Positions 1,898 through 35,131 of a stretch of DNA of 64,000 nucleotides are shown here, piece after piece. The first letter of the stretch is position 1; every line of letters starts with the position of its first letter. This DNA is from Escherichia coli (GTDB lineage: Bacteria > Pseudomonadota > Gammaproteobacteria > Enterobacterales > Enterobacteriaceae). Where the stretch lies: the NCBI RefSeq assembly GCF_003991155.1, contig NZ_CP031293.1. One strand, written 5' to 3'. A program made the position numbers and the translations under genes. The notes below the pieces were generated by a model that made no database searches, was not told the DNA's origin, and saw only the letters and a list, made by a program, of their open reading frames with translations.

Positions 1898-1899
1898 GG

Positions 1900-2164: not shown

Positions 2165-2250
2165 CAAAAATTTCGATGTAGATCACTCAACTGCTTATGA
2201 TTCGCACGACACGACCAGAAATAATGCGACTTCTGGTCGTGTGTTATGCA

Positions 2251-3042: not shown

Positions 3043-3051
3043 GCAATTCTC

Positions 3052-3597
<546 letters not shown>

Positions 3598-3607
3598 TTA
3601 ATTATTA

Positions 3608-4900: not shown

Positions 4901-5032
4901 CATATCTCCCTTATCTGGACCGATGGCCCACGATAATTTAGCAGAATGTTAACAAACTAAAATACACAAAACTACCAGAACCCCGTGGCAACCGGTGCCT
5001 GATGTTGACCGTCGGAACAGTCAACATCGCGA

Positions 5033-13981: not shown

Positions 13982-14431
13982 ATGAAGAAAGCAACACTTG
14001 TGATTGGCGTTATTGGCGCGGACTGCCATGCAGTAGGCAATAAAGTTCTGGACCGCGTTTTTAGCAACCATGGCTTCAGAGTCATTAATCTGGGCGTAAT
14101 GGTCAGCCAGGACGAATATATTGATGCGGCCATTGAAACTGGCGCTGACGCGATTGTCGTCTCCTCTATCTATGGGCATGGCGATATCGACTGTCTGGGC
14201 ATGCGCGAACGCTGCATCGAGCGTGGACTGGGGGACATCCTGCTCTATGTGGGCGGTAACCTGGTGGTCGGAAAACATGACTTCGCTGACGTGGAAACCA
14301 AATTCAAAGAGATGGGATTTGATCGCGTCTTTGCCCCAAGTCATGACTTAGAAGATGTTTGTCAGCTGATGGCACACGATATCAACCAACGTCATGACGT
14401 TGATACTCGTATTCTTGAAGAGGCAATCTGA
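13982..14431 (+). CDS. glmS: Glutamate mutase sigma (B12-binding) subunit
   Basis: ORF trimmed to ATG 13982 (AAGGA 7 nt upstream). [24 protein letters not shown] carries the DxHxxG cobalamin-binding motif. Size and position match clostridial MutS/GlmS. This is not the glucosamine-6-P synthase glmS. Confidence 0.9.
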
Positions 14432-15819: not shown

Positions 15820-15837
15820 CAATTAAGGCTGCAATCA

Positions 15838-17283: not shown

Positions 17284-18524
17284 TGAAAATAAAACAGGCT
17301 CTGTTCACCGCTGGCTACTCCTCATTCTATTTCGATGACCAGCAGGCGATAAAAAACGGAGCGGGTCATGACGGCTTTTTTTATACCGGGGAGCCGGTAA
17401 CACAGGGGTTTAACGCCGTTCGTCAGGCCGGGGAGTGCGTATCAGTACAGTTGATTCTGGAAAACGGCTCGGTCGCCGTAGGTGACTGTGCTGCCGTACA
17501 GTATTCCGGGGCAGGTGGTCGCGATCCACTGTTCCTCGCTGAGCACTTTATTCCGTTCCTCAACGACCATATCAAGCCATTACTGGTAGGCCGCGATGTG
17601 GATGCTTTCCTGCCGAATGCCCGTTTCTTCGACAAATTGCGTATTGACGGCAACTTGCTGCATACCGCCGTGCGCTACGGATTATCACAGGCGCTGCTTG
17701 ATGCTACCGCGCTGGCAACCGGCCGTCTGAAAACTGAAGTAGTTTGCGATGAATGGCAGTTGCCACGCGTGGCGGAATCCATTCCATTATTTGGTCAGAG
17801 CGGGGACGATCGATATATCGCCGTCGATAAGATGATCCTTAAGGGCATCGACGTGCTGCCCCATGCACTGATTAATAACGTCGAAGAGAAACTGGGCTTT
17901 AAAGGTGAAAAACTGCGCGAATATGTCCGCTGGCTGTCGGATCGTATTCTGAGCAAGCGCACCAGCGCACGCTACCACCCTACCCTGCACATCGATGTAT
18001 ACGGCACTATCGGTCTGATCTTCGATATGGATCCGCTTCGCTGTGCGCAATACATCGCCAGCCTGGAAAAAGAAGCGCAAGGCCTGCCGCTCTACATTGA
18101 AGGGCCGGTCGATGCCGGTAACAAGCCCGATCAAATTCGCCTGCTGACCGCGATTACCAAAGAGCTGACGCGCCTCGGTTCCGGCGTGAAAATTGTGGCC
18201 GATGAATGGTGTAACACCTACCAGGATATTGTTGATTTCACTGATGCCGCCAGTTGTCACATGGTGCAAATCAAAACCCCGGATCTGGGCAGTATTCACA
18301 ACATCGTCGATGCGGTTCTTTACTGCAACAGCCACAGCATGGAAGCGTACCAGGGCGGCACCTGCAATGAAACTGATGTCAGTGCCCGCACCTGTGTCCA
18401 CGTCGCCCTTGCCGCTCGCCCTATGCGTATGCTGGTAAAGCCAGGGATGGGCTTTGACGAAGGCCTCGATATCGTCTTCAACGAAATGAATCGTACTATC
18501 GCGCTGTTGCAGGCTAAGGATTAA
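17283..18524 (+). CDS. mal: 3-Methylaspartate ammonia-lyase (methylaspartase)
   Basis: 413 aa. MKIKQALFTAGYSSFYFDDQQAIKNGAGHDGF matches the clostridial MAL N-terminus; enolase-superfamily fold. TAATG start/stop coupling with glmE. Confidence 0.92.
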   Translation: MKIKQALFTAGYSSFYFDDQQAIKNGAGHDGFFYTGEPVTQGFNAVRQAGECVSVQLILENGSVAVGDCAAVQYSGAGGRDPLFLAEHFIPFLNDHIKPLLVGRDVDAFLPNARFFDKLRIDGNLLHTAVRYGLSQALLDATALATGRLKTEVVCDEWQLPRVAESIPLFGQSGDDRYIAVDKMILKGIDVLPHALINNVEEKLGFKGEKLREYVRWLSDRILSKRTSARYHPTLHIDVYGTIGLIFDMDPLRCAQYIASLEKEAQGLPLYIEGPVDAGNKPDQIRLLTAITKELTRLGSGVKIVADEWCNTYQDIVDFTDAASCHMVQIKTPDLGSIHNIVDAVLYCNSHSMEAYQGGTCNETDVSARTCVHVALAARPMRMLVKPGMGFDEGLDIVFNEMNRTIALLQAKD

Positions 18525-18527
18525 CAA

Positions 18528-19898
18528 ATGGCTCGTTCTTTTAAAGTCTTATCGCCAACGGCAATCCTCGGGTATGGATTCCCGGAAGAGAGCTTCCGCA
18601 AAGCGATGGCAGAATCGCCCGATCTGATCGCCGTTGATGCAGGCTCTTCCGATCCTGGCCCCCACTACCTCGGAGCGGGCAAACCGTTTACCGATCGCGC
18701 AGGGGTCAAGCGCGATCTGCGCTATATGATCACCGCAGGCGTGCAAAATAATATACCGGTGGTGATCGGAACAGCTGGCGGTTCTGGTGCCGCACCACAC
18801 CTGGAGTGGTGCCGAGAAATAATTCATGAGATTGCCCGGGAAGAGCGACTCGTGTTCTCGATGGCGCTGATCCCGGCAGACGTTGACAAAGCCATCGTCC
18901 ACCAGGCGCTGGATAACGGCAAAATCACGGCGCTGGATTTTGTCCCGCCGTTAACCCACGACGCGATTGACGAAAGTACGTATATCGTTGCGCAAATGGG
19001 CATCGAACCCTTCCAGCGGGCGCTGAAAGAAGGCGCGCAAGTGGTGCTGGGCGGGCGCGCTTACGACCCGGCCTGCTTTGCTGCGCTCCCGATCATGCAA
19101 GGCTTTGATGAAGGTCTGGCGCTGCATTGTGGGAAAATCCTTGAATGCGCGGCAATCGCCGCAACGCCCGGCTCAGGCTCTGACTGTGCGATGGGCATCA
19201 TTGATGACAACGGCTTTACGCTGAAGACATTTAATCCGAAGCGTAAATTTACCGAAACGTCAGCGGCTGCACACACACTGTATGAGAAATCCGATCCCTA
19301 CTTCCTGCCTGGACCTGGCGGCGTGTTGAACCTGAAAGGCTGCACATTTAAAGCGGTCAATGACGGCGAAGTGTACGTCAGCGGTTCTAAGCATGAAGAA
19401 ACGCCGTATGCCCTGAAACTGGAAGGTGCGCGACGGGTGGGCTTCCGCTGTCTGACCATCGCAGGAACGCGCGACCCGATCATGATCGCCGGGATCGATA
19501 AAATCATCGATGAAGTCAAAACCAGCGTTTCACGTAACCTGTCGCTCGACGATGACAGCATTCGCATCAATTTCCACCTGTACGGCAAAAACGGGGTGAT
19601 GGGCGACCATGAACCGATGCAAACTGCCGGGCATGAGCTGGGGATTGTCCTTGATGTAGTTGCACCGACCCAGGAAATTGCCAATAGCGTTTGCTCGCTG
19701 GTGCGCTCTACCATGCTGCACTACGGCTATGAAAACCGCATCGCTACCGCAGGCAATCTGGCGTTCCCGTTCTCCCCTTCTGATATCCAGGGCGGGCCGG
19801 TATACGAATTTTCCATATATCACCTGATTGAAGCCAACGACGCTCTGCGTTTTGATTTCCATATTGAACAGGTGACGCCAGAAGGAGTTCAGGCATGA
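18528..19898 (+). CDS. Conserved protein of unknown function, tentatively DUF1446/AtuA-like
   Basis: 456-aa ORF starting 3 nt after the mal stop. I recognise no catalytic motif. The family assignment is tentative and rests on pairing with the downstream DUF4387-like ORF. Confidence 0.8.
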   Translation: MARSFKVLSPTAILGYGFPEESFRKAMAESPDLIAVDAGSSDPGPHYLGAGKPFTDRAGVKRDLRYMITAGVQNNIPVVIGTAGGSGAAPHLEWCREIIHEIAREERLVFSMALIPADVDKAIVHQALDNGKITALDFVPPLTHDAIDESTYIVAQMGIEPFQRALKEGAQVVLGGRAYDPACFAALPIMQGFDEGLALHCGKILECAAIAATPGSGSDCAMGIIDDNGFTLKTFNPKRKFTETSAAAHTLYEKSDPYFLPGPGGVLNLKGCTFKAVNDGEVYVSGSKHEETPYALKLEGARRVGFRCLTIAGTRDPIMIAGIDKIIDEVKTSVSRNLSLDDDSIRINFHLYGKNGVMGDHEPMQTAGHELGIVLDVVAPTQEIANSVCSLVRSTMLHYGYENRIATAGNLAFPFSPSDIQGGPVYEFSIYHLIEANDALRFDFHIEQVTPEGVQA

Positions 19899-20212
19899 AA
19901 CAGTCAATTGTCTCACTGGCGCAAGTCATTCGTTCGAAAAATGCCGGACCTTACGAACTGGTTTTAGATATTTTATTTAAAACGAAAGAAAACTATGAGC
20001 GAGTTAAATCATCAGGGCAATTAACCCCAGAACTGATTGCGCGCTTATATCATGTTGAACCTGACTTTATTCACCGTATTGTCTGGTTTGATCCTTCTAA
20101 CGCAGTAAAAATCGTCATGCCACGAGATATTATCTCCGGGAATGTAGGTGACAATGATGTCTATGGTGCACAGCAACATGCACCTTTATTAAATATGAGT
20201 TTCGATTTGTAA
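19895..20212 (+). CDS. Conserved small protein, tentatively DUF4387 (AtuA C-terminal-like)
   Basis: 105 aa with an ATGA overlap onto the preceding ORF. The motifs IRSKNAGPYEL and DVYGAQQHAPLL resemble what I recall of DUF4387. Confidence 0.75.
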   Translation: MKQSIVSLAQVIRSKNAGPYELVLDILFKTKENYERVKSSGQLTPELIARLYHVEPDFIHRIVWFDPSNAVKIVMPRDIISGNVGDNDVYGAQQHAPLLNMSFDL

Positions 20213-20372
20213 AAATCCGAATACTTTTAGCCAACTGACATCCCGTCACTTATTGCAGTTCAACACTTCAGCTATTTGTAAGGTTGTAATAGCAGGTAGA
20301 TGCCTGAATCTCTATTCAGGCATCTACTTCTCCTGATTCTGATTTATCGCCGTGCACCTGATGGAGGAAAAA

Positions 20373-21653
20373 ATGAAGAAAATAAGTTTAACCACGATGA
20401 TTCTTTTGGCGCTGGTACTTGGAATGATTATCGGCGTAGTGCTCAATAACACTGCTTCACCGGAAACCGCAAAACTCTATGCGCAAGAAATATCGATATT
20501 CACGACGATTTTCTTACGACTGATAAAAATGATTATCGCTCCGTTAGTGGTCTCTACCCTGGTGGTAGGTATAGCTAAAATGGGAGATGCCAAAGCCCTT
20601 GGTCGTATTTTTTCTAAAACACTCTTTTTATTTATTTGCGCCTCATTGCTGTCAATTGCCTTAGGCTTGATAACGGTAAATTTCTTCATGCCAGGCACAG
20701 GAATTAATTTTGTTGCACACGGTGCCGAAACCACCGGAGTGGTCGCGTCAGAACCCTTTACACTAAAAGTATTTATTTCGCATGCTTTCCCCACCAGCAT
20801 TGTCGATGCCATGGCACACAATGAAATTTTGCAAATCGTGGTGTTCTCAATTTTCCTCGGCTGTAGCCTGACGGCGATTGGTGAGAAAGGCAGCGCCATC
20901 GTTCACGCCTTAGATTCGCTGGCACATGCCATGTTAAAGCTCACTGGCTACGTCATGCTCTTCGCTCCCCTGACCGTATTCGCCGCTATTTCAGCATTGA
21001 TTGCTGAACGAGGACTGGCAGTTATGGTGAGCGCCGGGATCTTTATGGGTGAATTTTATTTCACCATGTTGTTACTTTGGGTGCTGCTTATCGGTCTGGC
21101 CATCGTTTATGTCGGCCCCTGCATCAGACGCCTGACCCGTGCCCTTTCGGAACCCGCCCTGCTGGCATTTACCACATCCAGTTCTGAAGCGGCTTTTCCG
21201 GGAACGCTTGAAAAACTGGAGCAATTTGGCGTTTCCCCCAAAATTGCCAGCTTTGTCTTACCCATTGGCTACTCATTTAATCTCGTTGGATCAATGGCCT
21301 ACTGCTCCTTCGCCACAGTTTTCATCGCCCAGGCCTGCAATATCCATTTATCCATCGGTGAGCAAATCACCATGCTGTTGATCCTGATGTTGACCTCGAA
21401 AGGAATGGCTGGCGTACCACGCGCCTCAATGGTGGTTATCGCCGCCACGCTCAACCAGTTCAATATTCCGGAAGCGGGGCTGATCTTGCTGATGGGCGTT
21501 GATCCGTTCCTTGATATGGGGCGTTCCGCGACAAACGTCATGAGCAACGCAATGGGCGCTGCGATGGTGAGTCGGTGGGAAGGCGAACATTTCGGCGAGG
21601 GCTGTCGGGGTAAAGCATTAAAACCCAATGAATCGAACGTTGCTCTGCCCTGA
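20373..21653 (+). CDS. Dicarboxylate/amino acid:cation symporter (DAACS family, DctA/GltP-like)
   Basis: Start moved to ATG 20373 (GGAGG 5 nt upstream). 426 aa, polytopic, with TSSSEAAFP and GYSFNLVGS motifs typical of DctA/GltP carriers. Confidence 0.88.
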   Translation: MKKISLTTMILLALVLGMIIGVVLNNTASPETAKLYAQEISIFTTIFLRLIKMIIAPLVVSTLVVGIAKMGDAKALGRIFSKTLFLFICASLLSIALGLITVNFFMPGTGINFVAHGAETTGVVASEPFTLKVFISHAFPTSIVDAMAHNEILQIVVFSIFLGCSLTAIGEKGSAIVHALDSLAHAMLKLTGYVMLFAPLTVFAAISALIAERGLAVMVSAGIFMGEFYFTMLLLWVLLIGLAIVYVGPCIRRLTRALSEPALLAFTTSSSEAAFPGTLEKLEQFGVSPKIASFVLPIGYSFNLVGSMAYCSFATVFIAQACNIHLSIGEQITMLLILMLTSKGMAGVPRASMVVIAATLNQFNIPEAGLILLMGVDPFLDMGRSATNVMSNAMGAAMVSRWEGEHFGEGCRGKALKPNESNVALP

Positions 21654-21760
21654 GGGGGATCTTAAGCAATCAGAAGCCAATGACTACGCATTTTTATAAG
21701 CCGGATCATGAAGTTAGACGGCAATTAAGTAAAACTAACGTTTAAGGTGAAAAGTGAAAT

Positions 21761-23413
21761 ATGTCCAAACCATTTATCTGGCAAGAACCGTTTCTACAAA
21801 ATAAAGACGGTACAGAATATACATTAATTAGCGATCAACATATTACAGTAACGGAATTAGACGGCGAAGAAGTGATAAAAATCGCTCCTGAAGCATTAAC
21901 GCTGCTTGCCCGGCAGGCATTTTATGAAGCCTCTTTTTTCTTACGTTCCGCTCATTTGCAACAGGTCGCCAGCATTCTTAACGATCCGCACGCCAGTAGT
22001 AATGATAAATACGTTGCGTTGCAGTTATTACGTAATGCTGAAGTCTCAGCAAAAGGGGTATTACCCAACTGTCAGGATACCGGCACCGCAACTATTGTTG
22101 CCAGTAAAGGGCAACAGATATGGACCGGAGGTAACGACGCTGAAGCCTTAAGCAAAGGCATTTACACCACTTTTCAGGAAAATAATCTGCGCTTTTCACA
22201 AAATGCGCCACTGGATATGTATACCGAAGTCAATACGCAAACCAATCTACCGGCGCAGATTGATATCAGCGCCGTCGCTGGTGATGAGTACCATTTTCTC
22301 TGTATTAATAAAGGGGGCGGCTCTGCCAATAAAGCCGCGCTTTATCAGGAAACCAAATCCCTATTGCAACCAGAAAAACTGACCGCATTTTTAATCGAAA
22401 AAATGAAATCGCTGGGCACCGCTGCCTGCCCGCCTTACCACATCGCCTTTGTCGTCGGAGGGCTTTCAGCCGATCAAACCTTAAAAGTTGCCAAGCTGGC
22501 CTCAACGAAATATTACGACAATTTGCCCACCAGCGGAAACGAGCAAGGACAAGCATTCCGTGATATTGAGCTGGAAAAAGTATTGCTCGAGGCCAGTCAG
22601 CAATTTGGTATTGGTGCGCAATTTGGGGGTAAATATTTCGCTCATGATATTCGCGTCATTCGTCTGCCGCGTCACGGTGGCTCTTGCCCGATAGCTATGG
22701 CGCTCTCCTGTTCTGCGGATCGCAATATCAAAGCAAAAATTAACAAGCACGGTATCTGGCTGGAAAAACTCGAACACAATCCGGGGCAATATATTCCAGC
22801 CTCACTGCGGGAAGAAAATCACGCGCAACATGTACAGCTGGATCTAAACCGTCCGTTGCGTGACGTGATGCAGGATCTCGCCAGATTACCGGTAGGCACC
22901 CGCGTGTCGTTAAGTGGTCCCATCGTAGTGGCGCGCGATATCGCCCACGCCAAAATAAAAGCGCGGCTGGATAGCGGCGAACCGATGCCGGATTACCTGA
23001 AGCATCATATTGTCTATTACGCTGGCCCGGCGAAAACACCGGAGAACATGGCCTGCGGTTCACTGGGTCCAACCACGGGCGGTCGAATGGACGGTTATGT
23101 CGATACCTTCCAGGCGGCTGGCGGCAGTCTGGTGATGTTATCGAAAGGTAACCGCAGCCAGCAGGTCACCGATGCCTGTCACAAACATGGCGGCTTCAAT
23201 CTGGGGAGTATTGGCGGTGCAGCTGCGTTACTGGCGCAAGAATATGTCAAAAGTCTGCGTTGCCTGGAATACCCGGAGCTGGGTATGGAAGCGGTGTGGA
23301 TGATGGAAGTGGAAAATTTACCCGCATTCATCCTGGTAGATGATAAAGGCAATAATTTCTTTAGTCAGTTTGAGCAGCAACACCGCTGCGCCAGTTGCCC
23401 TGCGGGACATTAA
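21761..23413 (+). CDS. fumD: Class I (Fe-S) fumarate hydratase paralogue, probable mesaconase
   Basis: 550 aa, FumA/FumB-like ([19 protein letters not shown]). Its position in a methylaspartate operon matches the FumD mesaconase/fumarase described for E. coli O157:H7. Confidence 0.88.
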
Positions 23414-23422
23414 GGAAAATGA

Positions 23423-24025
23423 ATGGAAGCGCGAATTTCAACTGAACGGCATGTGCAGCGCCAGCAGAAATTGAAGGAACAGGTCGATACGCGCGTCGCG
23501 GCGGCGATAGAGAAAAAAGGGATTTTGATTGTTTTCACCGGCAACGGCAAAGGGAAATCCACTGCCGCGTTTGGTACTGTGACGCGCGCGGTGGGTCATG
23601 GCAAAACGGTGGGGGTTGCGCAGTACATCAAGGGGCAATGGGACAACGGCGAATACAACCTTCTCCAACCGCTGGGGGTTGAGTTTCATATTATGGGAAC
23701 CGGTTTTACCTGGGAGACACAGAACCGGCAAGCGGATATCGACGCGGCGAAAGAGGTCTGGTCGGAAAGCAAACGGATGCTGGCTGACAAGCGTTACGAC
23801 TTAGTGGTGCTTGATGAGCTGACCTATATGCTGGCTTACCATTATCTGGACACCGAAGAAGTGATCGCTTCTCTGCAAAACCGCCCGGCACAACAAAGTG
23901 TCATTGTCACCGGACGCGGTTGCCACAGTCAGATATTAAAAATGGCGGATACGGTCAGCGAAATCCGCCCCGTCAAACATGCTTTTGATAACGGCATTCA
24001 GGCGCAGCCGGGTATCGACTGGTAA
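23423..24025 (+). CDS. ATP:cob(I)alamin adenosyltransferase, CobA/BtuR type
   Basis: 200 aa with P-loop GNGKGKSTAAFG and DELTY, the same size as BtuR. It would supply adenosylcobalamin for glutamate mutase. Confidence 0.88.
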   Translation: MEARISTERHVQRQQKLKEQVDTRVAAAIEKKGILIVFTGNGKGKSTAAFGTVTRAVGHGKTVGVAQYIKGQWDNGEYNLLQPLGVEFHIMGTGFTWETQNRQADIDAAKEVWSESKRMLADKRYDLVVLDELTYMLAYHYLDTEEVIASLQNRPAQQSVIVTGRGCHSQILKMADTVSEIRPVKHAFDNGIQAQPGIDW

Positions 24026-24981: not shown

Positions 24982-24995
24982 ATAGTTGAAACTAT
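24982..24995. promoter_or_regulatory. Palindromic candidate LTTR box
   Basis: ATAGTT-GA-AACTAT perfect inverted repeat 18 nt upstream of the LysR ATG. It fits the general T-N11-A architecture. Confidence 0.35.
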
Positions 24996-25026
24996 CAAAA
25001 AACCATTACTTATTGCTAAGTAATGG
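24996..25026 (-). terminator. Rho-independent terminator at the end of the hut-like operon
   Basis: The minus strand reads ccattactta-gcaa-taagtaatgg (10-bp perfect stem) followed by TTTTTTG. It lies about 210 nt downstream of the 25235 stop. Confidence 0.7.
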
Positions 25027-25234
25027 CAACCAAAGCAGCAATCAATATTTTATAAAAATCATGTTCGATATTTATAACCTGGTAAGCCTGGCGTGACAAT
25101 TGTCTCAATCAGACAATAATAATCCGAAAAGCAAAACGCCCTTCGGATTATTATGATTCAAGTTAAGTGAAGATTATTAAATTGATAGCAATTATCATAT
25201 CTATGGATATTATGACAAACAATCAACAAAAATT

Positions 25235-26905
25235 TTATTTTTGATTTATAGCATATCCTTCTAAGAATTTTTGCGAAGCTGCAATATCTGGGGTAAAGAC
25301 CCGATCCTGGTCGACAAACGGCACGACTTTTCTGTATTCGGTAAACATTGCTTTGGTGGATTTCCCTAATGCCAGTTGTGGATCGGCCTGCAACCGTAAA
25401 TCGAGAGCCTGTGCGGAATGCATCAGTTCAATGCCATAAATCACGTTCAGATTATCGACAACCTGTTTCAATCTTCTGGCCGCGTGGTCATTATTGGCAC
25501 CGGTATCTTCTATACCTCCGGCAACCGGTTGAATATCGAAAGAAACCGGGTTAGCGAGATCGACATTTTCCGCATGCAGCGCAACAAACGGGATATGTAA
25601 TGAACCGAAGCCATGACCTTTATTACCTGCTGCCGACAGGAAGCGTGACAAACCGGTAAAGTGATCATCTTCAAGATGCAGCGAGCGGCGCATACTGTTA
25701 TGTGAAACATGCACTAACGCCACGGTCAGACGCTGGGTGGCAAGCGCAACCGGTAACGATTCGAAATTCGCCGTCGGGAAGATCCCACCGCTGATTGCCC
25801 CATCTTTAACAAAATATTGCGCGACCTGACTGGAGTCCTGATACGCTTTGTCTGCATTCAGCACGGTTGCCGGGTTGTCATCGGAACTGTTGATCTGCAC
25901 GGTAATGGTATCTTCAGCATCGCGCAACGCGCGCATTGCCTCAGAAATGGTATACACCGTCGTTCTGAACGATAACGGATCCTGCAATGCACGTTTGTCA
26001 TGCTTATGCCATAAATAAGAACCACTTAACGCATCGCGAATCTCTTTAGCGGAATCAGCCAACTGCGGGAAAGGACGCACGGCGATCGACTGCGGCAGTA
26101 CCGGCGCGACATTGCCATTCAACGCTTCCAGACTCATAGCGAAAACCACCGGGCTGACATTCAGCAACTGACGTGCCGAACGAACAGCTTCGATAGCGTA
26201 GGCTGTCCCGACGCTGTTGTTCGATAAAATCGCCAGCATATCTTTACCCTGCGGTACCAGTGGCTTAAGTCCCACTTTCGCCAGCGCGTCACCACCGCTC
26301 ATTTGCACGCCATTTACTCGGGCTTTCCATTCCCCCATCATCACCAGACCAACGTGCGAAGCGAGCATAATATCCGCTGCGCCGATACTTCCCCGCACCG
26401 GAATTAACGGTGTAACGCCGCGATTAATAAATTCGGCATACAACTCGGCAATATAAGGCTGTGCGCCGGTTTGCCCATGCAGCATGGTATTTAAACGTAA
26501 TACCATTGAAAGGCGTGCCAGATAATCCGGTAACATCGGACCAACGCCCGCAGAATGGGCGCGCAGCGCGGCAGCATTAAATTTTTTCGACGCGTCAATC
26601 ACCTCAGGCGTTAAATTTCCTTTGGCATCAAATATGGGCTGATCTTTATTTAGCCCCACGCCCACGGTTAAGCCATAAACAGGCGTACCTGAATGCGCGG
26701 CAGTCATCACCAGATCATAACTTTTTTCCATGCGCTCCATGGCGTTCGACGCGATTTTGACGCCGTTATCACCTAATGCAATTGACCAGGCCTGGTCAAT
26801 GGAAAGATGTTCGCCATCCAGCGTAATGGTTGATTTCGCCATCGCAATGGAGCAAACGCTCCAGAGCACAACGGTGACAGTGACTCTTCGTATCAATCCT
26901 TTCAT
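25235..26905 (-). CDS. Secreted (periplasmic) histidine/phenylalanine ammonia-lyase-fold protein lacking the MIO Ala-Ser-Gly triad
   Basis: 556 aa with AAGGA 6 nt upstream. Sec signal MKGLIRRVTVTVVLWSVCSIAMA|KS. It aligns to HutH (YGLTVGVG, LRAHSAGVG, QDPLSFR, DDNP), but GSVGASGDLAPLAH is replaced by GSIGAADIMLASH. Confidence 0.85.
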   Translation of the reverse strand: MKGLIRRVTVTVVLWSVCSIAMAKSTITLDGEHLSIDQAWSIALGDNGVKIASNAMERMEKSYDLVMTAAHSGTPVYGLTVGVGLNKDQPIFDAKGNLTPEVIDASKKFNAAALRAHSAGVGPMLPDYLARLSMVLRLNTMLHGQTGAQPYIAELYAEFINRGVTPLIPVRGSIGAADIMLASHVGLVMMGEWKARVNGVQMSGGDALAKVGLKPLVPQGKDMLAILSNNSVGTAYAIEAVRSARQLLNVSPVVFAMSLEALNGNVAPVLPQSIAVRPFPQLADSAKEIRDALSGSYLWHKHDKRALQDPLSFRTTVYTISEAMRALRDAEDTITVQINSSDDNPATVLNADKAYQDSSQVAQYFVKDGAISGGIFPTANFESLPVALATQRLTVALVHVSHNSMRRSLHLEDDHFTGLSRFLSAAGNKGHGFGSLHIPFVALHAENVDLANPVSFDIQPVAGGIEDTGANNDHAARRLKQVVDNLNVIYGIELMHSAQALDLRLQADPQLALGKSTKAMFTEYRKVVPFVDQDRVFTPDIAASQKFLEGYAINQK

Positions 26906-26955
26906 TGTGTTTCCTTATCATGATGAGTTTAACAACGGGTTACTGCGACAACGTT

Positions 26956-27906
26956 TTAATTTGTTCTATCTGTTTTCCCCCGCCGGACAATACTGGTCAC
27001 CAGGCGAGCGGCAACTTTCGCAGTTAAATTATCGCGGTCCAGGTCCGGGTTAAGTTCGGCAATATCCGCAGCAATCAACTTCTCGCTACCGGCGATTAAA
27101 TTCACAATGGCTTCAGTAATATTTAACGGCACGCCTAACGGTGATGGAGCAGAAACACCGGGCGCCTGATAACCTGGTAAAACATCGAGACAAATCGTTA
27201 AATAAATGGCGTCACAAGCCTGAATATCTGCCGAGAGCGCATTAGCGATCTCATGCAAACCACGTTCAAATTGCAGAGATTCGTCCAGCCAATAACGCAC
27301 ACCGAGACAATCAGCGCGATCAAATAACGCCTGAGTATTGGCAAAACGACTTATTCCCAGCACGCGATAATGAAACGGTTTGCCATGCTGCGCGTTCCAC
27401 TCTTGCATCTGACGAAACGGCGTACCTGAATTGGCTTGTTCCGCCATCCGTAAATCAAAATGCGCGTCAAGGTTCACAATCAGTAACCGCTGAATATCCG
27501 GACGCGACTGCATAATCCCCTGAAATGTTCCCCACGCCACTTCATGACCGCCCCCCAGAACCACCGGTAAACTGCCGCGCGCAATGGCTGTAGATACGTT
27601 AGCCGCCAGACGATTTTGTGCGGATTCCAGCGCGTGGTCCTCGCTTTGTACATCGCCCATATCGAAAATAGCGCCTTCACAGAGCACTGGCATATTTCCC
27701 AACATGCTGCGCAACGCGCCCGGTCCGCCTGCTGCACCCGCTCGCCCATCATTACGTTGCACTCCGTCATCAACGGCAAAACCAATCAGCGTACAACCGC
27801 CGTGGCTTTGTTCACTAAACGGTTGCACATGCTGATGCCAGCGAGTGCTGATGCCGGTTTCCTGCGAGTCAACACGCCCACTCCACGGCAAAAATGTTTG
27901 CTTCAT
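26956..27906 (-). CDS. hutG: Formimidoylglutamase (arginase fold)
   Basis: Start trimmed to ATG 27906 (AAGGAG upstream; TAATG overlap with the hutI stop). 316 aa with Mn-site motifs GGGHEVAWG, DAHFD and CLDVL. Confidence 0.88.
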   Translation of the reverse strand: MKQTFLPWSGRVDSQETGISTRWHQHVQPFSEQSHGGCTLIGFAVDDGVQRNDGRAGAAGGPGALRSMLGNMPVLCEGAIFDMGDVQSEDHALESAQNRLAANVSTAIARGSLPVVLGGGHEVAWGTFQGIMQSRPDIQRLLIVNLDAHFDLRMAEQANSGTPFRQMQEWNAQHGKPFHYRVLGISRFANTQALFDRADCLGVRYWLDESLQFERGLHEIANALSADIQACDAIYLTICLDVLPGYQAPGVSAPSPLGVPLNITEAIVNLIAGSEKLIAADIAELNPDLDRDNLTAKVAARLVTSIVRRGKTDRTN

Positions 27907-29117
27907 TACCAACTCCTTTTTCCGCCGACAATAAGCCCCTGGCAAGGCTGATGCCCAAACCAGTAAGCCAGTTCACGTGGATGATTAAGATCCCAGACCG
28001 CCATATCCGCCCGTAATCCCGGTGCAAGTTCACCCCGGTCAATAAGTCCAAGTGCCTTTGCCGCATTACGCGTAACGCCCTGAACGGCTTCCAGCGGCGT
28101 CATGCGAAACAGCGTACAGGCCATATTGATCATCAATGGCAATGACATATTGGGAGACGTTCCGGGATTATGGTCCGTGGAGATAGCAATCGGCACACCT
28201 GCGGCCCGCAGAGCGACAATCGGCGGCAGATGGGTTTCGCGCAGGAAGTAATAAGCACCGGGAAGCAAAACCGCCACTGTTCCAGCCGCTTTCATGGCGG
28301 CGATCCCCGACTCGCTCAGGTACTCCAGATGATCGCAGGAGAGTGCAGAAAACGCCGCTGCCAGCGCCGCGCCTTGCTGGTCAGAAAGCTGTTCGGCATG
28401 CAGTTTTACAGGTAATCCATAGCTTTGCGCTTTACTGAAAACGCGCCGTACCTGCTCTGGAGTAAAGGCGATGTTTTCACAAAAAGCATCAACTGCATCA
28501 ATCAGCCCCTGTTCATGCAACACGCACATCCAGTCGCAAAGCGCCGTAATGTAATCATCACTGCGCCCGGCAAACTCTGGCGGCAGGCTGTGCGCCCCGA
28601 GAAACGTAGACTGAATATGTAACCCGGTAGATTGCTGCAAGCGGCGGATCACGCGTAAACAACGTGCTTCATCTTCCAGCGTTAAGCCATAACCCGATTT
28701 GATTTCAAGCGTACTGACGCCTTCACGTTGCCAGTTTCGCAGTCGCTGCGCCGCCAGTTCAAACAACTGTGTTTCGCTGGCTGCCCGCGTGGCATTAACC
28801 GTAGATAAGATCCCGCCGCCCGCTCTGGCGATATCTTCATAAGCCACGCCTTGCAACCGCATCTCAAACTCGTTCGCCCTCTGGCCGCCATACACCAGAT
28901 GTGTATGACAATCCACCAGACCGGGTGTCAGCAACTTACCCTGTAGATCGTGTTCCTCTGTAATATCAGCCGTCAGTTCACGGGGGATCTGCGTGGCCTT
29001 CCCAAGCCAGACAATCGAGTCACCACGGCTGATTAATGCCCCCTTTTCAATCACTCCCCAATCGTTAGCGGAAAGCGTCGCCAGCGTGGTATTTCGCCAG
29101 AGCGTTAATGCACTCAT
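27906..29117 (-). CDS. hutI: Imidazolonepropionase
   Basis: Start trimmed to ATG 29117 (ATGA overlap with the hutD stop). 403 aa; VDCHTHLVYGG metal site; amidohydrolase fold. Confidence 0.9.
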   Translation of the reverse strand: MSALTLWRNTTLATLSANDWGVIEKGALISRGDSIVWLGKATQIPRELTADITEEHDLQGKLLTPGLVDCHTHLVYGGQRANEFEMRLQGVAYEDIARAGGGILSTVNATRAASETQLFELAAQRLRNWQREGVSTLEIKSGYGLTLEDEARCLRVIRRLQQSTGLHIQSTFLGAHSLPPEFAGRSDDYITALCDWMCVLHEQGLIDAVDAFCENIAFTPEQVRRVFSKAQSYGLPVKLHAEQLSDQQGAALAAAFSALSCDHLEYLSESGIAAMKAAGTVAVLLPGAYYFLRETHLPPIVALRAAGVPIAISTDHNPGTSPNMSLPLMINMACTLFRMTPLEAVQGVTRNAAKALGLIDRGELAPGLRADMAVWDLNHPRELAYWFGHQPCQGLIVGGKRSW

Positions 29118-29704
29118 AAGGATTTTTCCCCTCGTAGATAATAAAGCCACCAGCCCGCCAGCTCACCGACGGAGACTTTCTTCCGTGGTACGAAACGCCA
29201 GGGCCTGCCATCAGGTGCAACCAGCCATAACAACATATTTGCCGCGACAAACACCCTTTTCTTGCCGCTTATCCACTCCCCTTCACACAGCGTGAACAGG
29301 CCCGCTTGCGCAAGTGACGGAGGACGCCAGTCAACGGCACTTTGCACCCGCAACATCCCCGCATCGCCTTCCCGCGCCATAACATTCAGATCGCGAACCC
29401 CGCCGCCCAGCAGCTGGCAATCAGGCATAGCTTCTCCAGGGAAAATTAAGGCGGGATCGTGACGTTGCAGGTTGATGATCGAATCGGCAAACGTTAGCTT
29501 CACCCCTTCCCCGTCGAGAATCGCGAGGCCACGAACCACGCCAGGCCACGCTGAAAAAGAGCCATCCTGACTGACATTCGCCATACTGATGCGCAACAAC
29601 CAGTTTTCATCATCGGGCCAGGCAAGCAGCTGTCGGGTAAACCCCCCGCCGTTGCGCCACGGTTGCAGCGGCTTATCCATTGCAGAAATCAGCATCGGTT
29701 CCAT
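29114..29704 (-). CDS. hutD: HutD-family protein
   Basis: 196 aa. The WRNGGGFTRQL motif and bicupin size are typical of HutD. It starts 1 nt after the permease stop. Confidence 0.8.
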   Translation of the reverse strand: MEPMLISAMDKPLQPWRNGGGFTRQLLAWPDDENWLLRISMANVSQDGSFSAWPGVVRGLAILDGEGVKLTFADSIINLQRHDPALIFPGEAMPDCQLLGGGVRDLNVMAREGDAGMLRVQSAVDWRPPSLAQAGLFTLCEGEWISGKKRVFVAANMLLWLVAPDGRPWRFVPRKKVSVGELAGWWLYYLRGEKSL

Positions 29705-29705
29705 A

Positions 29706-31115
29706 TTAAGACTCGGGATAAATCGTATAAGCAGGAACGCAGGTGGTGCGTTTGGCCCACGGGTAATAGATAACGGCGGTAATTAACAAGCCGACAATCC
29801 AGGAGATATCCGCCCCATCCATCAGGACAGAAATGGGTCCCTGATACAGTTTTTGATTCAGGAAGGGGATCTGCACCAACACGCCTACGCCATAGCACGT
29901 CAAAGCGGTTTTGTTATACGCGCCATAACGCCCTTCCGGGGTATAAAGTGCCGGAATATCGGTTTTACCTTGTGAGATGAAGTAGTAGTCGATGAGATTA
30001 ATGGCGCTCCACGGCACAAATACCGTCAACAGCAGCAGAACGAAGTTTTTGAAATTATTCAAAAAATCTGCGCTTGCCGCCAGCGCGACGACCATCGACA
30101 ACAGCACGAACCCTACAACGTAGGCAGCACGAACACGCTGTGAAACCTGACTGCGATTATTAAAGGCGCTGACGGTCGCCAGAATCGACATAAAGCCACC
30201 GTAGGCATTCAAACAGTTCACCGTCAGTTTGCCGCAAACAATCACCGTATAAATCAGAATGGCGAAGGTGGGTCCGGCTAACTCACCCATAAAACCAACC
30301 TGATCCTTCAGGAAGTTAGCACCACAGGCCGCAACAAGCACGCCAAACGTCATGGCACATTGCGCGCCAAGCGTGGTTCCCAGAAAGGTGGCAAAGAAGA
30401 TTGATTTTGCTGGCGTATCAGAGGGTAAATAGCGGGAATAATCAGAGGCGTAAGGGGCAAACGTTAATTGCCATCCGGCAGAGAGAGCAATCGTTAATAA
30501 AAAGACCGACAGACTAAATGGCTTTTGACCAAATGCCGCAGCCACATCGTAGTGACCGCTAAGTTGAGTGGCCAGGTAAATAAACCCCAGAATACTTAAT
30601 ATCCCTGCAACACGGCCAACGACGTGAATAAGTTTATAACCGACCAATGCGATCATCGCGGTCAGCATGCCGAAAATAATAATTCCGGTCGATGCCGATT
30701 CGAAACCAAATATCCGGTTAATCGCCTGACCGGATAATACTGTACCCGTCGCGGCAAATCCAAGGTACATAATAATCACCATCAGTAACGGTAGCGCCGC
30801 TCCTTTAACGCCAAAGCGGATACGACTGGAGATCATCTGGGGTAATCCCAGCTTTGCCCCCTGCGACGAGTGCAATGCCATTACTGCACCACCAATAATA
30901 TTACCGATTAATAAACCAATTATTGCTGACATGGCTTCGGAGCCAAAAATAATCGCTAACGCGCCGTCCACCACAGCGGTAATTTGTAAGTTAGCACTTA
31001 GCCATAAAGTAAACTGACTGGATGGCGAGCCGTGGCGAGCAGACTCAGGAACGGCGTTAATCGTATTTGATTCTAATACTGGCTTTTTACTGCGGATAGG
31101 GCTGCTTGATTCCAT
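29706..31115 (-). CDS. NCS1/purine-cytosine permease family transporter, candidate urocanate importer
   Basis: Start trimmed to ATG 31115 (AGGAG 8 nt upstream). 469 aa, about 12 TM segments. Pseudomonas hut clusters carry an NCS1 permease next to hutU that has been linked to urocanate uptake. Confidence 0.8.
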   Translation of the reverse strand: MESSSPIRSKKPVLESNTINAVPESARHGSPSSQFTLWLSANLQITAVVDGALAIIFGSEAMSAIIGLLIGNIIGGAVMALHSSQGAKLGLPQMISSRIRFGVKGAALPLLMVIIMYLGFAATGTVLSGQAINRIFGFESASTGIIIFGMLTAMIALVGYKLIHVVGRVAGILSILGFIYLATQLSGHYDVAAAFGQKPFSLSVFLLTIALSAGWQLTFAPYASDYSRYLPSDTPAKSIFFATFLGTTLGAQCAMTFGVLVAACGANFLKDQVGFMGELAGPTFAILIYTVIVCGKLTVNCLNAYGGFMSILATVSAFNNRSQVSQRVRAAYVVGFVLLSMVVALAASADFLNNFKNFVLLLLTVFVPWSAINLIDYYFISQGKTDIPALYTPEGRYGAYNKTALTCYGVGVLVQIPFLNQKLYQGPISVLMDGADISWIVGLLITAVIYYPWAKRTTCVPAYTIYPES

Positions 31116-31278
31116 GAAAAAGTCTCCTGCAAAATGAGAGGTCATTTTTTGAAACAGCAATAGAGGGTCGGGAGATATTTCTCTCGACGATGTAAAAATA
31201 TTTTTTGATAATTATTGTTATACAGGCGAATTATTCTCCGCCTGTATTAGCGCAAATATTAAATGACGGCGTTAATAT

Positions 31279-32976
31279 TTAGCGAATCATCGGTAATTTC
31301 AGACCATAGTTTTTGGCACATTCAATTGCCGCTTCATAACCCGCATCCGCATGACGCATAACCCCGGACGCACAGTCATTCACCAGCACACGCGCCAGAC
31401 GTTTTTCGGCTTCTTCGCTACCATCGGCAACAATAACCATCCCGGCGTGTTGTGAATACCCCATCCCGACGCCGCCGCCATGATGCAGGGATACCCACGT
31501 TGCTCCCCCTGCAGTGTTGAGCAAACCGTTGAGCAACGGCCAGTCAGAAACCGCATCACTGCCATCAAGCATGCTTTCGGTTTCGCGGTTCGGGCTGGCG
31601 ACAGAACCGGTATCAAGATGATCGCGCCCAATCACAATCGGTGCTTTTAGTTCACCGTTGCGCACCATTTCGTTGAATGCCAGCCCCGCCAGGTGACGCT
31701 CACCAAGCCCCAGCCAGCAAATACGTGAAGGAAGTCCCTGGAAGGCAATGCGCTCGCGCGCCATATCCAGCCAGCGATGCGTCAGTACGTTATTGGGGAA
31801 CAACTCTTTAATTTTGGCATCAGTTTTATAGATATCTTCCGGGTCGCCAGACAGCGCCACCCAACGGAATGGACCTTTGCCTTCACAAAACATTGGACGA
31901 ATATAAGCCGGAACAAAGCCCGGGAAATCAAAGGCATTTTGCAGACCTTCGTTGAAGGCCACCTGGCGGATGTTGTTGCCATAATCGACAACCGGGATCC
32001 CCATCGCCTGGAAGTCCAGCATCCCCTGAACATGTGCGACGCAGCTCTGTGCCGCTTCTTTTTGCAATCTGGCGTGTTGCTGTGGATCCTGCTGTGCAGC
32101 GCGCCATTGTTCTACGCTCCAGCCCATCGGTAGGTAGCCATAAACCAGATCGTGAGCGGAAGTCTGGTCGGTCACCAGATCCGGCTTGATCGCCCCCTGA
32201 CGTGCACGTTTCACCAGTTCAGGAACAATTTCCGCCGCATTGCCCAACAGCGCGATTGAAACAGCGTCTTTGCGCTCAGTATGGTATTTAATCAGCGCCA
32301 GTGCATCATCGAGATCTTTCGCTTGTTTATCGACATAACGGGTACGCAGACGGAAGTCGATGCTACTTTGCTGGCACTCGATATTTAATGAACACGCCCC
32401 CGCCAGAGTCGCCGCCAGCGGTTGTGCACCGCCCATACCACCTAGCCCTGCGGTCAGGATCCATTTTCCACTCAGCGAATTGTTGTAGTGCTGACGACCC
32501 GCTTCAACAAAGGTTTCGAACGTTCCCTGCACAATGCCCTGACTACCGATGTAGATCCACGAGCCAGCGGTCATCTGGCCGTACATGAACAGACCTTTAC
32601 GATCCAGTTCATTGAAATGATCCCAGTTGGCCCATTGCGGTACCAGGTTAGAGTTGGCAATCAATACGCGCGGCGCATCGGTATGCGTTTTAAACACGCC
32701 TACGGGTTTACCGGACTGAACCAGCAGTGACTCATCAGCTTCCAGATTTTTCAGTGATTCAAGGATTTTGTCAAAACACTCCCAGTTACGTGCCGCACGA
32801 CCAATACCACCATACACCACCAGATGCTGTGGATTTTCGGCAACGTCGGGATCAAGGTTGTTCTGCAACATCCGATAGGCAGCTTCGATCTGCCAGTTTT
32901 TGCAGTGCAGCTGCGTACCGTGTGGCGCATGGATTACACGGCTGGTATCAATACGCGGGTCTGAAGGCTTACTCAT
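31279..32976 (-). CDS. hutU: Urocanate hydratase
   Basis: Start trimmed to ATG 32976 (AGGAGA upstream). 565 aa with the [18 protein letters not shown] site. Urocanase family throughout. Confidence 0.93.
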
Positions 32977-33733
32977 GAATCTTCTCCTGTTACTTGATAA
33001 AATTAAACGCTGTAATCGGTCAGAAAAAACGAACGAATGAATATAGAAACGGTTTCTATAATTCCCGTTTATCATTTTGTATTATTAATTCATTTAGTGA
33101 ATATTGTTTGTCGTGGTATATTCACTATGAATATAAATTCAAAACCACCAACGCGTTGTATGCGAATTCAATATGCTTAATTTAACTTGTCGAAAAAGTG
33201 ATATTGTTGGCAAAATATTTTCTAATTTGAACATATGAATATGATGAGATTGCAAGATGTCAGTAATTTAATTATATGAGAAATGCGTTAATAACGACCA
33301 GATATTAGCGTAACAACAGGTGTTCCGACACCACACAGTGCGCATAACACAATGATATTTAAAATAAGATCTTCATTATTCGTCATAAAGACATGTTTTA
33401 TTATCATTAATAATCCATTTGTTTTCATCCCACTTTTGATAATTAAAAAACGGCAACAATGGATAGTTACCCGACGTAAAAACAGGCGTAAAAATAAATC
33501 TTAAAATATATCCACTGGAAATTATCATTTTTCATATTTTACAATCTGGCGTCGATAACTGACCCCTTTTATAACACCCCCGTTTGTTAATAGTCTTTTT
33601 TATCTTGTATTGATCGTCATTGCTGCATACACTACGCGCGTTTTCTTTCCCTTTTGCTGGCTGCTGACCGGAAAGACAAAATTACCCTCGCAATAAAGGG
33701 GGTTGTTTAACGTCTATATTTCAGGACAGCGTT

Positions 33734-35131
33734 ATGCATCATCTTTCAAGGCTTGATAAAGCCTTTCTGCGCAAAGGGATCCAACTTTCCCGCGCCAACA
33801 ATATTGTTTCATTATGTCGTCCATCAGGAGCCAGTGCCCACGTACTGCTGCCGGACGAACTGCCGCTGGAAGAAAAAGCAGTGACACAACTGCTTGATTT
33901 TGCAGAAGTGAAGATACCAGACCATCCAGGTTACGTACGCCAGACCTGTGCGACGCCAGATTTTCATCCCGGCAATGGCGTCCCCGTTGGCGCGGTAGTC
34001 GCCTCTACGCCGGATTTAGTCATTCCTGCGGCCATCGGCACCGATATTTCTTGTGGCATGCGGCTGCTGACGACCGGATTAACACTTGAGCAAGCCGAAG
34101 CGAATAAAGAAATAATCACTCAGCGGTTAACACAAGTGTTACTGCAAAATGAGCGCGATGTTCCGTTATCCGCACGAGCGTTCACCGCGCTTTTTGATGG
34201 CGGACCGGCAGATTGCATGTCGGCCTTGCCATCAGCAGGTCTCTGGACACGTACAAATATCCCCCGAATGACGCAAGAGATTGACCGCTGCATTGGGCTT
34301 AACGAGCATAACAGTCATTCGCGTTATGCCCCACCCGCCCTACTGGTAACGGACCGCCCATTACTCCGCGATCCTTGTCTTGGTACGCCGGGTTCAGGTA
34401 ATCATTTTATTGAACTTCAGGTGGTTGATAGCGTGGTTGATCGCCATGTTGCCTGGCAACAAGGGCTGAAAACGGGCGATATTGTGGTGATGATCCACAG
34501 TGGATCGCGAGATGTTGGCTTTTACGTCGGAAGACGCTGGATGGATCGCGCCCGTGCTGAATGGCCCACCGGACATAAACATCCACAAAGCGGGTTATAT
34601 GGCCTGGCAGGCGGACTGGCGGAGGAATATCTACAAGCGATGGGAATGGCGGCGCGTTACGCGTGGTTAAATCGCGTCACAATTGCCGAAATGGTGCGCG
34701 TATGTCTTGCCAATCTCTTTCATCAGGACAATTCGCATCTGGTGGTGGATGTGCCGCATAACATCATCCTTCGCGAGCATGAAATGAATATTCATCGCAA
34801 AGGTGCAACACCGGCACGCGCGGGCAATCTGGCGTTAATCCCCGGTTCAATGGGCGATTATTCGTGGCTTGCAGTCGGTTGCGGCAACCCGGAGTGGCTG
34901 TGGTCTTGCAGTCACGGAGCAGGACGCAGCCAGCGTCGGCAGGCCATGCACTCACGCGCGACTGAAGAGTCAACGTTGCCGTGGCAATGCGTCACATTGC
35001 GCGAAGAACGGCGTATTGAAGAAGCGCCAGCTGCTTATAAAGATATTGGTCCGGTTATCGAAGCCCAACAAGAGGCCGGATTAATTCATCCAGCGGTTAG
35101 ATTCCGACCGTGGTTAACGTTTAAGGCATAA
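33734..35131 (+). CDS. RtcB-family RNA 3'-phosphate ligase paralogue (stand-alone)
   Basis: 465 aa. RtcB signature blocks are conserved: PDFHPG, GTDISCGMR, GSGNHFIELQ, IHSGSRDVG, PHNII, HRKGATPA, IPGSMG, SHGAGR. Confidence 0.88.
   Translation: MHHLSRLDKAFLRKGIQLSRANNIVSLCRPSGASAHVLLPDELPLEEKAVTQLLDFAEVKIPDHPGYVRQTCATPDFHPGNGVPVGAVVASTPDLVIPAAIGTDISCGMRLLTTGLTLEQAEANKEIITQRLTQVLLQNERDVPLSARAFTALFDGGPADCMSALPSAGLWTRTNIPRMTQEIDRCIGLNEHNSHSRYAPPALLVTDRPLLRDPCLGTPGSGNHFIELQVVDSVVDRHVAWQQGLKTGDIVVMIHSGSRDVGFYVGRRWMDRARAEWPTGHKHPQSGLYGLAGGLAEEYLQAMGMAARYAWLNRVTIAEMVRVCLANLFHQDNSHLVVDVPHNIILREHEMNIHRKGATPARAGNLALIPGSMGDYSWLAVGCGNPEWLWSCSHGAGRSQRRQAMHSRATEESTLPWQCVTLREERRIEEAPAAYKDIGPVIEAQQEAGLIHPAVRFRPWLTFKA

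Follow-up and report, generated by a model that had tools for sequence, protein, structure and literature searches.

The window analysed here, 64 kb of Escherichia coli DNA (contig NZ_CP031293.1), is a chromosomal island between sucD and cydA. It contains a tightly spaced operon on the minus strand, in the order hutU, NCS1 permease gene, hutD, hutI, hutG and a lyase gene, and it is this last gene that we discuss. As a whole, the data are best explained if the lyase is a Sec-exported, periplasmic enzyme that works without the 4-methylidene-imidazol-5-one (MIO) cofactor of histidine ammonia-lyase (HAL, HutH), acts most likely on histidine betaine (hercynine), and feeds urocanate to the Hut pathway. 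We put the probability of this reading at about 0.58. The features on which it turns in the first place are the gene and its altered MIO loop:

25235..26905, minus strand: coding sequence of the MIO-less HAL-fold lyase (open reading frame and translation, Pfam Lyase_aromatic, PDB sequence match, AlphaFold2 (AF2) model and Foldseek)
26372..26392, minus strand: GSIGAAD loop in place of the MIO-forming GSVGASGD of HutH (codons GGA AGT ATC GGC GCA GCG GAT)

The open reading frame is real and encodes a precursor of 556 amino acids, with the stop codon at 25235-25237. The Pfam profile Lyase_aromatic (PF00221) is fully covered (residues 34-526 against positions 1-466 of 466; 412.7 bits), which bears out the first-pass annotation in that the likeness to HAL extends over the whole length. 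The deletion of the MIO triad, which had been claimed from the codons at 26392-26372, is there as well: in the HMMER alignment GSIGAAD lies opposite GSVGASGD of Pseudomonas putida HAL, with a one-residue gap and no Ala-Ser-Gly. As the triad is absent, MIO cannot form, and the function of the lyase must lie elsewhere than in the MIO-dependent deamination of histidine. A sequencing or frame error at the loop was considered and rejected, since 41 genomes share the identical sequence and the loop recurs in orthologues of 85-96% identity. The lyase scores 281.1 bits with the hutH equivalog TIGR01225, i.e. it does not reach the cut-off of 539.15, and it stays below the cut-offs of all phenylalanine ammonia-lyase (PAL), tyrosine ammonia-lyase (TAL) and aminomutase models. 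A tblastn search found neither a second HAL-fold gene nor a canonical hutH in the window. The lyase gene closes a hut operon and occupies the hutH slot, as had been remarked earlier.

Among solved structures the closest match is an ergothionase, both by sequence and by fold. In a phmmer search of the PDB, the ergothionase 6S7J was found with an E-value of 5.5e-85, as opposed to 6.7e-50 for HAL, and the AF2 model (pLDDT 87.6), which was compared at the fold level only, has 6S7J as the first-ranking Foldseek hit with a template modelling (TM) score of 0.91 (TM 0.82-0.91 to 6S7J and the HAL structures). Over its full length the lyase is 54% identical to SO_3057 of Shewanella oneidensis, the highest value found with any characterised enzyme, 40% identical to Swoo_3913 of Shewanella woodyi (a sequence recovered from a supplement, with optical character recognition errors), 35-37% identical to the Treponema denticola ergothionase Td_ETL and 32% identical to P. 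putida HAL. The homologue P0112 was recognised as SO_3057 by its length of 545 amino acids, its mature N-terminus EQVVL and its C-terminus TDFITHY, which match the published primers.

Six residues, Tyr77, His117, Gln308, Arg314, Asn339 and Glu466, are invariant in an alignment of 35 diverse homologues. The residues that match them serve in proton abstraction, carboxylate binding and imidazole binding (bioRxiv 10.1101/2025.08.13.670108), and by correspondence to that preprint Tyr77 would be the catalytic base, Gln308, Arg314 and Asn339 would bind the carboxylate, and His117 and Glu466 would form the imidazole-binding pair. Judged by these residues, the lyase has the signature of an active enzyme and not that of a decayed HutH or of a binding protein, and its sequence places it with the MIO-independent trimethylammonia-lyases, i.e. 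the ergothionase and histidine-betaine group. This group eliminates trimethylamine from N-alpha-trimethylated histidines, and the rationale given is that MIO can be dispensed with because trimethylamine is itself a good leaving group (bioRxiv 10.1101/2025.08.13.670108 and 10.64898/2026.04.22.720169). The MIO-independent elimination mechanism has been established for Td_ETL, and the characterised MIO-less relatives are all inactive on histidine (bioRxiv 10.1101/2025.08.13.670108). At the position of the MIO loop the ergothionases have G(E)(G/A)D and Swoo_3913 has GLSD. The first-pass annotation had also described other HAL motifs as degenerate. The changes are present as it listed them (LLNGTQ to ILSNNS, and NQEDHVS to GIEDTGA), but the altered motifs are conserved motifs of an active enzyme family. 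Its suggestion of an enzyme with different chemistry thus pointed in the right direction. A periplasmic, MIO-less HAL-fold protein is not in itself a new role, however: MIO-less lyases of this fold are already established through ergothionase and its 2019 structure (6S7J), and three Shewanella lyases with predicted leaders, whose products serve as electron acceptors in respiration, appeared in 2025-26 in two preprints from one laboratory.

The lyase gene is full length in 144 out of the 144 complete E. coli genomes that carry it. The ratio of nonsynonymous to synonymous substitutions (dN/dS) against an orthologue of 85% identity is about 0.04 (dN 0.09, with dS saturated at about 2.2), and the gene is under strong purifying selection. 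An assembly artefact was rejected on these two grounds.

Two further features concern the start of the gene and the predicted location of its product:

26911..26916, minus strand: Shine-Dalgarno-like AAGGAA, 5 nt upstream of the ATG at 26905
26837..26905, minus strand: predicted Sec-type signal peptide, residues 1-23, cleavage between AMA and K (sequence and hydrophobicity profile)

The leader, MKGLIRRVTVTVVLWSVCSIAMA followed by KST after the predicted cleavage site, starts with a basic n-region, continues with a hydrophobic core (Kyte-Doolittle means over 10 residues of up to 2.27) and ends in a c-region with A-x-A before Lys24. The Sec signal reported earlier is therefore present, and export to the periplasm is predicted from it. 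We found no good lipobox in the leader, and its twin Arg is not kept in the 85% orthologue, which is encoded on contig L088. A hydrophobic N-terminal extension occurs in 104 out of 121 homologues; its presence is conserved and its sequence is not. The homologues without a leader are Gram-positive Enterococcus-type proteins, annotations that start at Met22 and truncated gene calls. Some NCBI records, P0002 (535 amino acids) and P0006 among them, begin at Met22, and the signal peptide is thereby removed. The gene is annotated only as 'HAL/PAL/TAL family ammonia-lyase', and in the RefSeq genome H31 (NZ_CP173554.1 927608-929278) it is labelled 'hutH: histidine ammonia-lyase'. With such generic or hutH labels and a start codon that hides the leader, metabolic reconstruction would wrongly infer histidine utilisation.

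The part of the protein that bears most directly on the substrate is a short loop:

25592..25612, minus strand: specificity loop, residues 432-438, GFGSLHI (alignment; clade-separating columns)

In Td_ETL the thiolate of ergothioneine is bound by Lys384 (bioRxiv 10.1101/2025.08.13.670108). Loss of this Lys abolishes ergothionase activity, and enzymes of the non-thio or histidine betaine type have a neutral residue in its place (bioRxiv 10.1101/2025.08.13.670108 and 10.64898/2026.04.22.720169). The E. coli lyase has Ile438 at this position (loop GFGSLHIPF), and the neighbouring Gln is replaced by His437. Most of the 120 best homologues (103) have a Gln-Lys loop of the form (A/G)(I/V)QK, together with Glu-Ala (99) or Glu-Gly (4) in the MIO loop. 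The E. coli protein belongs to a smaller His-Ile/His-Val set, which comprises the E. coli and E. marmotae proteins, the 85% orthologue, a relative of 68% identity and the leaderless Enterococcus-type proteins (60-62%). The alignment positions that distinguish these proteins from the Gln-Lys set are concentrated at residues 432-438. In a neighbour-joining tree the His-Ile/His-Val set is monophyletic and nested in the leader-bearing, ergothionase-like radiation, and the clade of Swoo_3913 (loops GLSD and TLQNGF, beside urdA genes) forms a separate lineage. The His-Ile/His-Val loop is unlike that of every characterised enzyme. Going by the defining Lys the lyase is not an ergothionase, and by its placement it is not an orthologue of Swoo_3913 either; it represents an uncharacterised subgroup. 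No further Gram-negative members of the His-Ile clade were found among the GTDB species representatives (the E. coli representative lacks the island), and a scan of metagenomes returned essentially E. coli copies only, with L088 as the only informative extra context.

The likely product is indicated by the rest of the operon, whose genes are the following:

26956..27906, minus strand: hutG, formimidoylglutamase (TIGR01227, 292.5 bits against a cut-off of 229; RefSeq)
27906..29117, minus strand: hutI, imidazolonepropionase (TIGR01224, 450.9 bits against a cut-off of 298)
29114..29695, minus strand: gene of the hutD/Ves family (Pfam HutD, 107 bits)
29706..31115, minus strand: NCS1-family permease, candidate urocanate importer, HutTu-like (Pfam Transp_cyt_pur)
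31279..32976, minus strand: hutU, canonical urocanate hydratase (TIGR01228, 934 bits against a cut-off of 375)

As HutU, HutI and HutG are canonical, all above their equivalog cut-offs, plain urocanate is expected as the product of the lyase. HutU of the module fails the cut-offs both for thiourocanate hydratase (670 against 930 bits) and for S-methyl-thiourocanate hydratase (671 against 880), and the same models sort correctly elsewhere, i.e. they separate the thiourocanate hydratases of Achromobacter (1036 bits, cut-off 930) from HutU of Bordetella. In the 8.6-kb module there is no flavocytochrome or reductase, no thiourocanate-specific downstream enzyme and no demethylase or other tailoring gene.

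The leader would place the reaction in the periplasm, and consequently urocanate would have to be imported. The NCS1 permease is a candidate for this step, by analogy of hut context to HutTu. HutTu is presumably an NCS1 protein itself. The urocanate-specific transporter of Pseudomonas hut operons is HutTu (PA5099; PMC12977541, PMC7319117). In Comamonas testosteroni, a homologue of the E. coli permease with 65-67% identity immediately precedes hutU-hutD-hutI, within a classical hut cluster that has hutC and an annotated Lyase_aromatic gene as well. On L088, a contig with 49% GC content, the 85% orthologue of the lyase is directly preceded by an 85% orthologue of the permease (the pair at 1886-5377), with no hutU, hutD, hutI or hutG between or immediately upstream of the pair. 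Permease and lyase thus travel together, being paired on an unrelated contig that lacks the other hut genes. The other neighbours on L088 are genes for a sulfatase, a radical-SAM maturase-like protein and TrkH.

We consider the odds somewhat better than even that the substrate is hercynine, which is the simplest substrate that an MIO-less family member can turn into urocanate. Tyr77 would act as the base that removes the beta-proton, the quaternary trimethylammonium group would need no electrophilic cofactor to depart, and hercynine would be split into trimethylamine and trans-urocanate in the periplasm. The permease of the same operon would then bring urocanate into the cell, where HutU, HutI and HutG would convert it to glutamate and formamide, and the adjacent methylaspartate-pathway island could ferment the glutamate. 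In this scheme the fold, the lack of the triad, the conserved catalytic and binding residues, the leader sequence, the gene content of the operon, the canonical HutU, HutI and HutG and the purifying selection come from the data; the substrate, the periplasmic location and the transport of urocanate are inferred.

It is instructive to compare the lyase with the systems that are already known. SO_3057 is an ergothionase with a predicted periplasmic leader, coupled to flavocytochrome c (bioRxiv 10.64898/2026.04.22.720169). It resembles the lyase in its N-terminal leader, the lack of Ala-Ser-Gly and the same catalytic Tyr, His, Gln, Arg, Asn and Glu. Its loop is AIQKAF with the thiolate-binding Lys as opposed to SLHIPF, and its gene lies between two genes for flavocytochrome c subunits, a respiratory setting, whereas the lyase gene is part of a catabolic hut operon with a permease. 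Swoo_3913, the second enzyme, is a histidine betaine trimethylammonia-lyase that produces urocanate and trimethylamine, is inactive on histidine and is coupled to UrdA (bioRxiv 10.1101/2025.08.13.670108). This is the reaction that we propose for the E. coli protein, and the two share a leader, the absence of MIO, a neutral residue at the position of Lys384 and the coupling to a urocanate-consuming enzyme. They are not orthologous, however: at 40% identity they fall into separate clades and differ in both loops (GLSD and TLQNGF in Swoo_3913, GAAD and SLHIPF in the lyase). The partner of Swoo_3913 is the periplasmic urocanate reductase UrdA of anaerobic respiration, while the partners of the lyase are HutU, HutI, HutG and a putative importer; dependence on Mg2+ is known for Swoo_3913 only.

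Td_ETL (6S7J and 6S7Q) is the best solved-structure match, but unlike the lyase it is cytoplasmic and leaderless, has Lys384 and acts on ergothioneine. SO_3299 of S. oneidensis is an N-pi-methyl-histidine betaine lyase coupled to flavocytochrome c (bioRxiv 10.64898/2026.04.22.720169). Compared by description only, it is similar to the lyase in having a leader, no MIO and a neutral residue (Gln434) at the Lys position, and it is set apart by its need for the N-pi-methyl group and by the flavocytochrome; it was absent among the 120 best homologues and the fetched loci. Finally, HutH (EC 4.3.1.3; 1B8F of P. putida) has the same fold and, in many hut clusters, the same operon position, and urocanate is the expected product in both cases. 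The lyase differs from it by an identity of only 32%, the missing Ala-Ser-Gly, the score below the hutH cut-off and the predicted export.

E. coli is not alone in linking a leader-bearing, MIO-less lyase to hut genes. In Bordetella, five loci (L066, L071, L072, L074 and L081) have a canonical hutU immediately upstream of an MIO-less lyase with a long N-terminal leader or extension, and the one annotated in full (L066) has hutC, hutU (980 bits as hutU), the lyase and a TctC receptor, in this order. Bordetella is a second lineage with such a lyase in the hutH slot. In Achromobacter loci a Gln-Lys lyase is paired with the true thiourocanate hydratase mentioned above. The leaderless His-Val lyases of the Enterococcus type (L002-L004, L008-L010, L022, L054 and L089) share a conserved cluster with genes for a sigma-54 activator, a fused coenzyme A (CoA) transferase, an MFS transporter and an FMN oxidoreductase of the NMO/IMPDH type. 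This suggests that the enoate product is processed in the cytoplasm in a CoA-dependent way. A Pseudomonas-like contig with a lyase of the same clade has genes nearby that resemble those of hydroxyproline catabolism.

Two other groups of relatives deserve mention. In a metagenome-assembled genome (L057, 10001-13144) a leaderless MIO-less paralogue with loops GVGD and LEIP directly precedes a canonical HutH with Ala-Ser-Gly, and hutU (959 bits) and hutI belong to the same cluster. A distinct leader-bearing clade from Sutterellaceae and relatives (L027, L030-L037, L039 at 2971-4557, L040, L041 and L064) has the loops G-D-A-D and A-T-E-D, i.e. Glu-Asp at the Gln-Lys position, and its genes adjoin those of UrdA-like reductases that are 47-54% identical to Swoo_3912. 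In L039 and L064, lyases of the Glu-Asp and Gln-Lys types are side by side.

Several of these observations weigh against hercynine as the substrate and against the proposed route. The nearest characterised relative is an ergothionase and not a hercynine lyase, and, as the His-Ile/His-Val set is a separate clade, an activity on hercynine would have arisen independently. The Bordetella lyases that are linked to hut genes keep Gln-Lys, which makes the Lys an imperfect predictor of the substrate. A neutral residue is no guarantee of hercynine specificity either, since the substrate of SO_3299 is N-pi-methyl-hercynine. Other His-Ile/His-Val members are not beside hut genes, so the clade gives no uniform clue. 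Finally, the module has no HutC-type regulator, and a permease homologue in Nocardia is not hut-linked.

Of the alternatives, the one that survives best, although we regard it as unlikely, is a lyase or eliminase for another modified histidine, such as a ring-methylated hercynine, an oxidised derivative of ergothioneine or an incompletely methylated histidine, which would yield a urocanate analogue, or urocanate after processing. The example of SO_3299 speaks for it, as it shows that enzymes with a neutral residue can need the N-pi-methyl group, and so do the loop unlike that of any characterised enzyme and the relatives of the clade in non-hut contexts. Against this, HutU, HutI and HutG are canonical by curated cut-offs, the residues that would contact the imidazole, His117 and Glu466, are unchanged, and the module lacks a gene for demethylation or tailoring.

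Somewhat less probable is a periplasmic ergothionase that converts ergothioneine to thiourocanate and trimethylamine. The closest characterised relative and the best PDB match are both ergothionases, and the clade is nested among sequences of the Gln-Lys type. An older finding also speaks for it: Wolff reported an 'ergothionase from Escherichia coli' in 1962. According to a 2026 paper, which doubts that report, no homologue of ergothionase is annotated in E. coli. The strain-variable lyase gene is the only homologue that megablast found in complete E. coli genomes, where no Gln-Lys lyase gene of the E. albertii type was detected, and it could then be the gene behind the old report. On the other hand, this protein has Ile438 where ergothionases have the Lys that binds the thiolate, and His where they have the adjacent Gln, and the loss of the Lys speaks against ergothioneine as the substrate. 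Moreover, HutU fails the thiourocanate hydratase cut-off, and the module has neither a thiourocanate-specific enzyme nor a reductase. E. coli W has mngR-mngAB instead of the island at this site, which would count against the link if W was the strain of 1962.

We consider it very improbable that the protein is cytoplasmic, with translation from Met22 (ATG at 26842; 535 amino acids) and a transporter that brings the substrate in. The records that start at Met22 and the leaderless Enterococcus relatives would fit such a protein. However, the Shine-Dalgarno-like site stands before Met1 only, with no such site before Met22, and the RefSeq record WP_001361287.1 uses Met1. In addition, the 21 upstream codons are open in frame and leader-like in the 85% orthologue on L088, and almost all Gram-negative homologues carry leaders. 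On these grounds the Met22 start was rejected.

The least probable reading, which we practically dismiss, is the non-catalytic protein for binding or sensing histidine or urocanate in the periplasm that the first-pass annotation had suggested, or a decaying remnant of HutH: the lost triad and the motif changes look like decay if compared with HutH only, but the catalytic and substrate-binding residues are invariant, three homologues with the same motifs have a kcat/Km of about 10^5-10^6 M-1 s-1 (bioRxiv 10.1101/2025.08.13.670108 and 10.64898/2026.04.22.720169), and the gene is intact and under strong purifying selection.

The hut-lyase genes form a discrete module, and its limits and the presumed end of the transcript are as follows:

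24983..33625, no strand: boundaries of the hut-lyase module, an 8.6-kb insertion or deletion between the LysR and RtcB-family genes (comparison with strain 6EVA)
25002..25027, minus strand: terminator-like hairpin downstream of the lyase gene, with a stem of 11 bp followed by a T-run (consensus scan only)

In strain 6EVA the module is replaced by 464 unrelated nucleotides between the same two genes. The whole module is present in 143 of 5426 complete E. coli genomes (about 2.6%), and the flanking LysR, cobO and RtcB genes are present in about 1130 genomes. The module also occurs on contigs of human-gut metagenomes, one of which (L095, 9288-11485) carries a deletion variant that joins a fragment of hutU to a lyase gene beginning at about codon 62. 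The LysR protein was considered as a regulator of the module and rejected: about 1000 genomes without the hut module have its gene, beside cobO, so we assign the LysR gene to the adjoining methylaspartate island. When two E. coli alleles of the module are compared (25235-26905 against L112 1236-2906 for the lyase), the lyase is the most diverged gene with 94.6% identity, and hutU, the permease gene, hutD, hutI, hutG and the LysR gene are 97.9-99.7% identical. The differences in the lyase gene are mosaic and occur in bursts, with only 12 amino-acid changes counted, and this looks like recombination with a diverged allele.

The methylaspartate (glutamate fermentation) island (13919-24025, plus strand; PMC4682846) comprises the genes for glutamate mutase S, L and E, methylaspartate ammonia-lyase, a DctA-like symporter, a FumD-type class I fumarase and cobO. 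As the Hut end product glutamate is the substrate of the methylaspartate pathway, module and island could together form a route from a histidine derivative through glutamate to mesaconate. Such a route has a parallel in the classical way in which clostridia ferment histidine.

Taken together with the distribution, we tentatively suggest, at slightly less than even odds, that about 2.6% of complete E. coli genomes carry a self-contained route in which dietary or fungal hercynine is split in the periplasm and the urocanate is imported and burnt via Hut and possibly the methylaspartate pathway. The lyase lineage would have evolved independently from leader-bearing ergothionase-like sequences by a change of the Lys384 loop to His-Ile. 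In the literature searched we did not find a description of the His-Ile subgroup, of its presence in E. coli or of the coupling to an importer and the cytoplasmic Hut enzymes instead of a periplasmic reductase. If the proposed route is correct, some gut E. coli turn histidine betaine into trimethylamine, the precursor of trimethylamine N-oxide, and use the rest as a source of carbon and nitrogen, and the lyase would be an unrecognised source of trimethylamine in Enterobacteriaceae. It would also be the first catabolic, not respiratory, use of a periplasmic histidine-betaine lyase and would extend the periplasmic trimethylammonia-lyases from anaerobic respiration to ordinary catabolism. The Gln-Lys and His-Ile loops, on scaffolds that are 54-60% identical, would then be a natural pair for the study of ergothioneine versus hercynine specificity. 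In addition, the lyase is a concrete gene to test against the 1962 report, and if it has kept some activity on ergothioneine, it would be the only candidate gene for the ergothionase reported then.

Two further parts of the window are mentioned for completeness. A stand-alone gene for an RNA ligase of the RtcB family (33734-35131, plus strand) is divergent from hutU, and we saw no recognisable regulator in the intergenic region of about 760 nt between hutU and rtcB. Within the methylaspartate island, overlapping genes for an AtuA-family protein (456 amino acids) and a DUF4387 protein (105 amino acids) are located at 18528-20212 (plus strand), between the genes for methylaspartate ammonia-lyase and the symporter.

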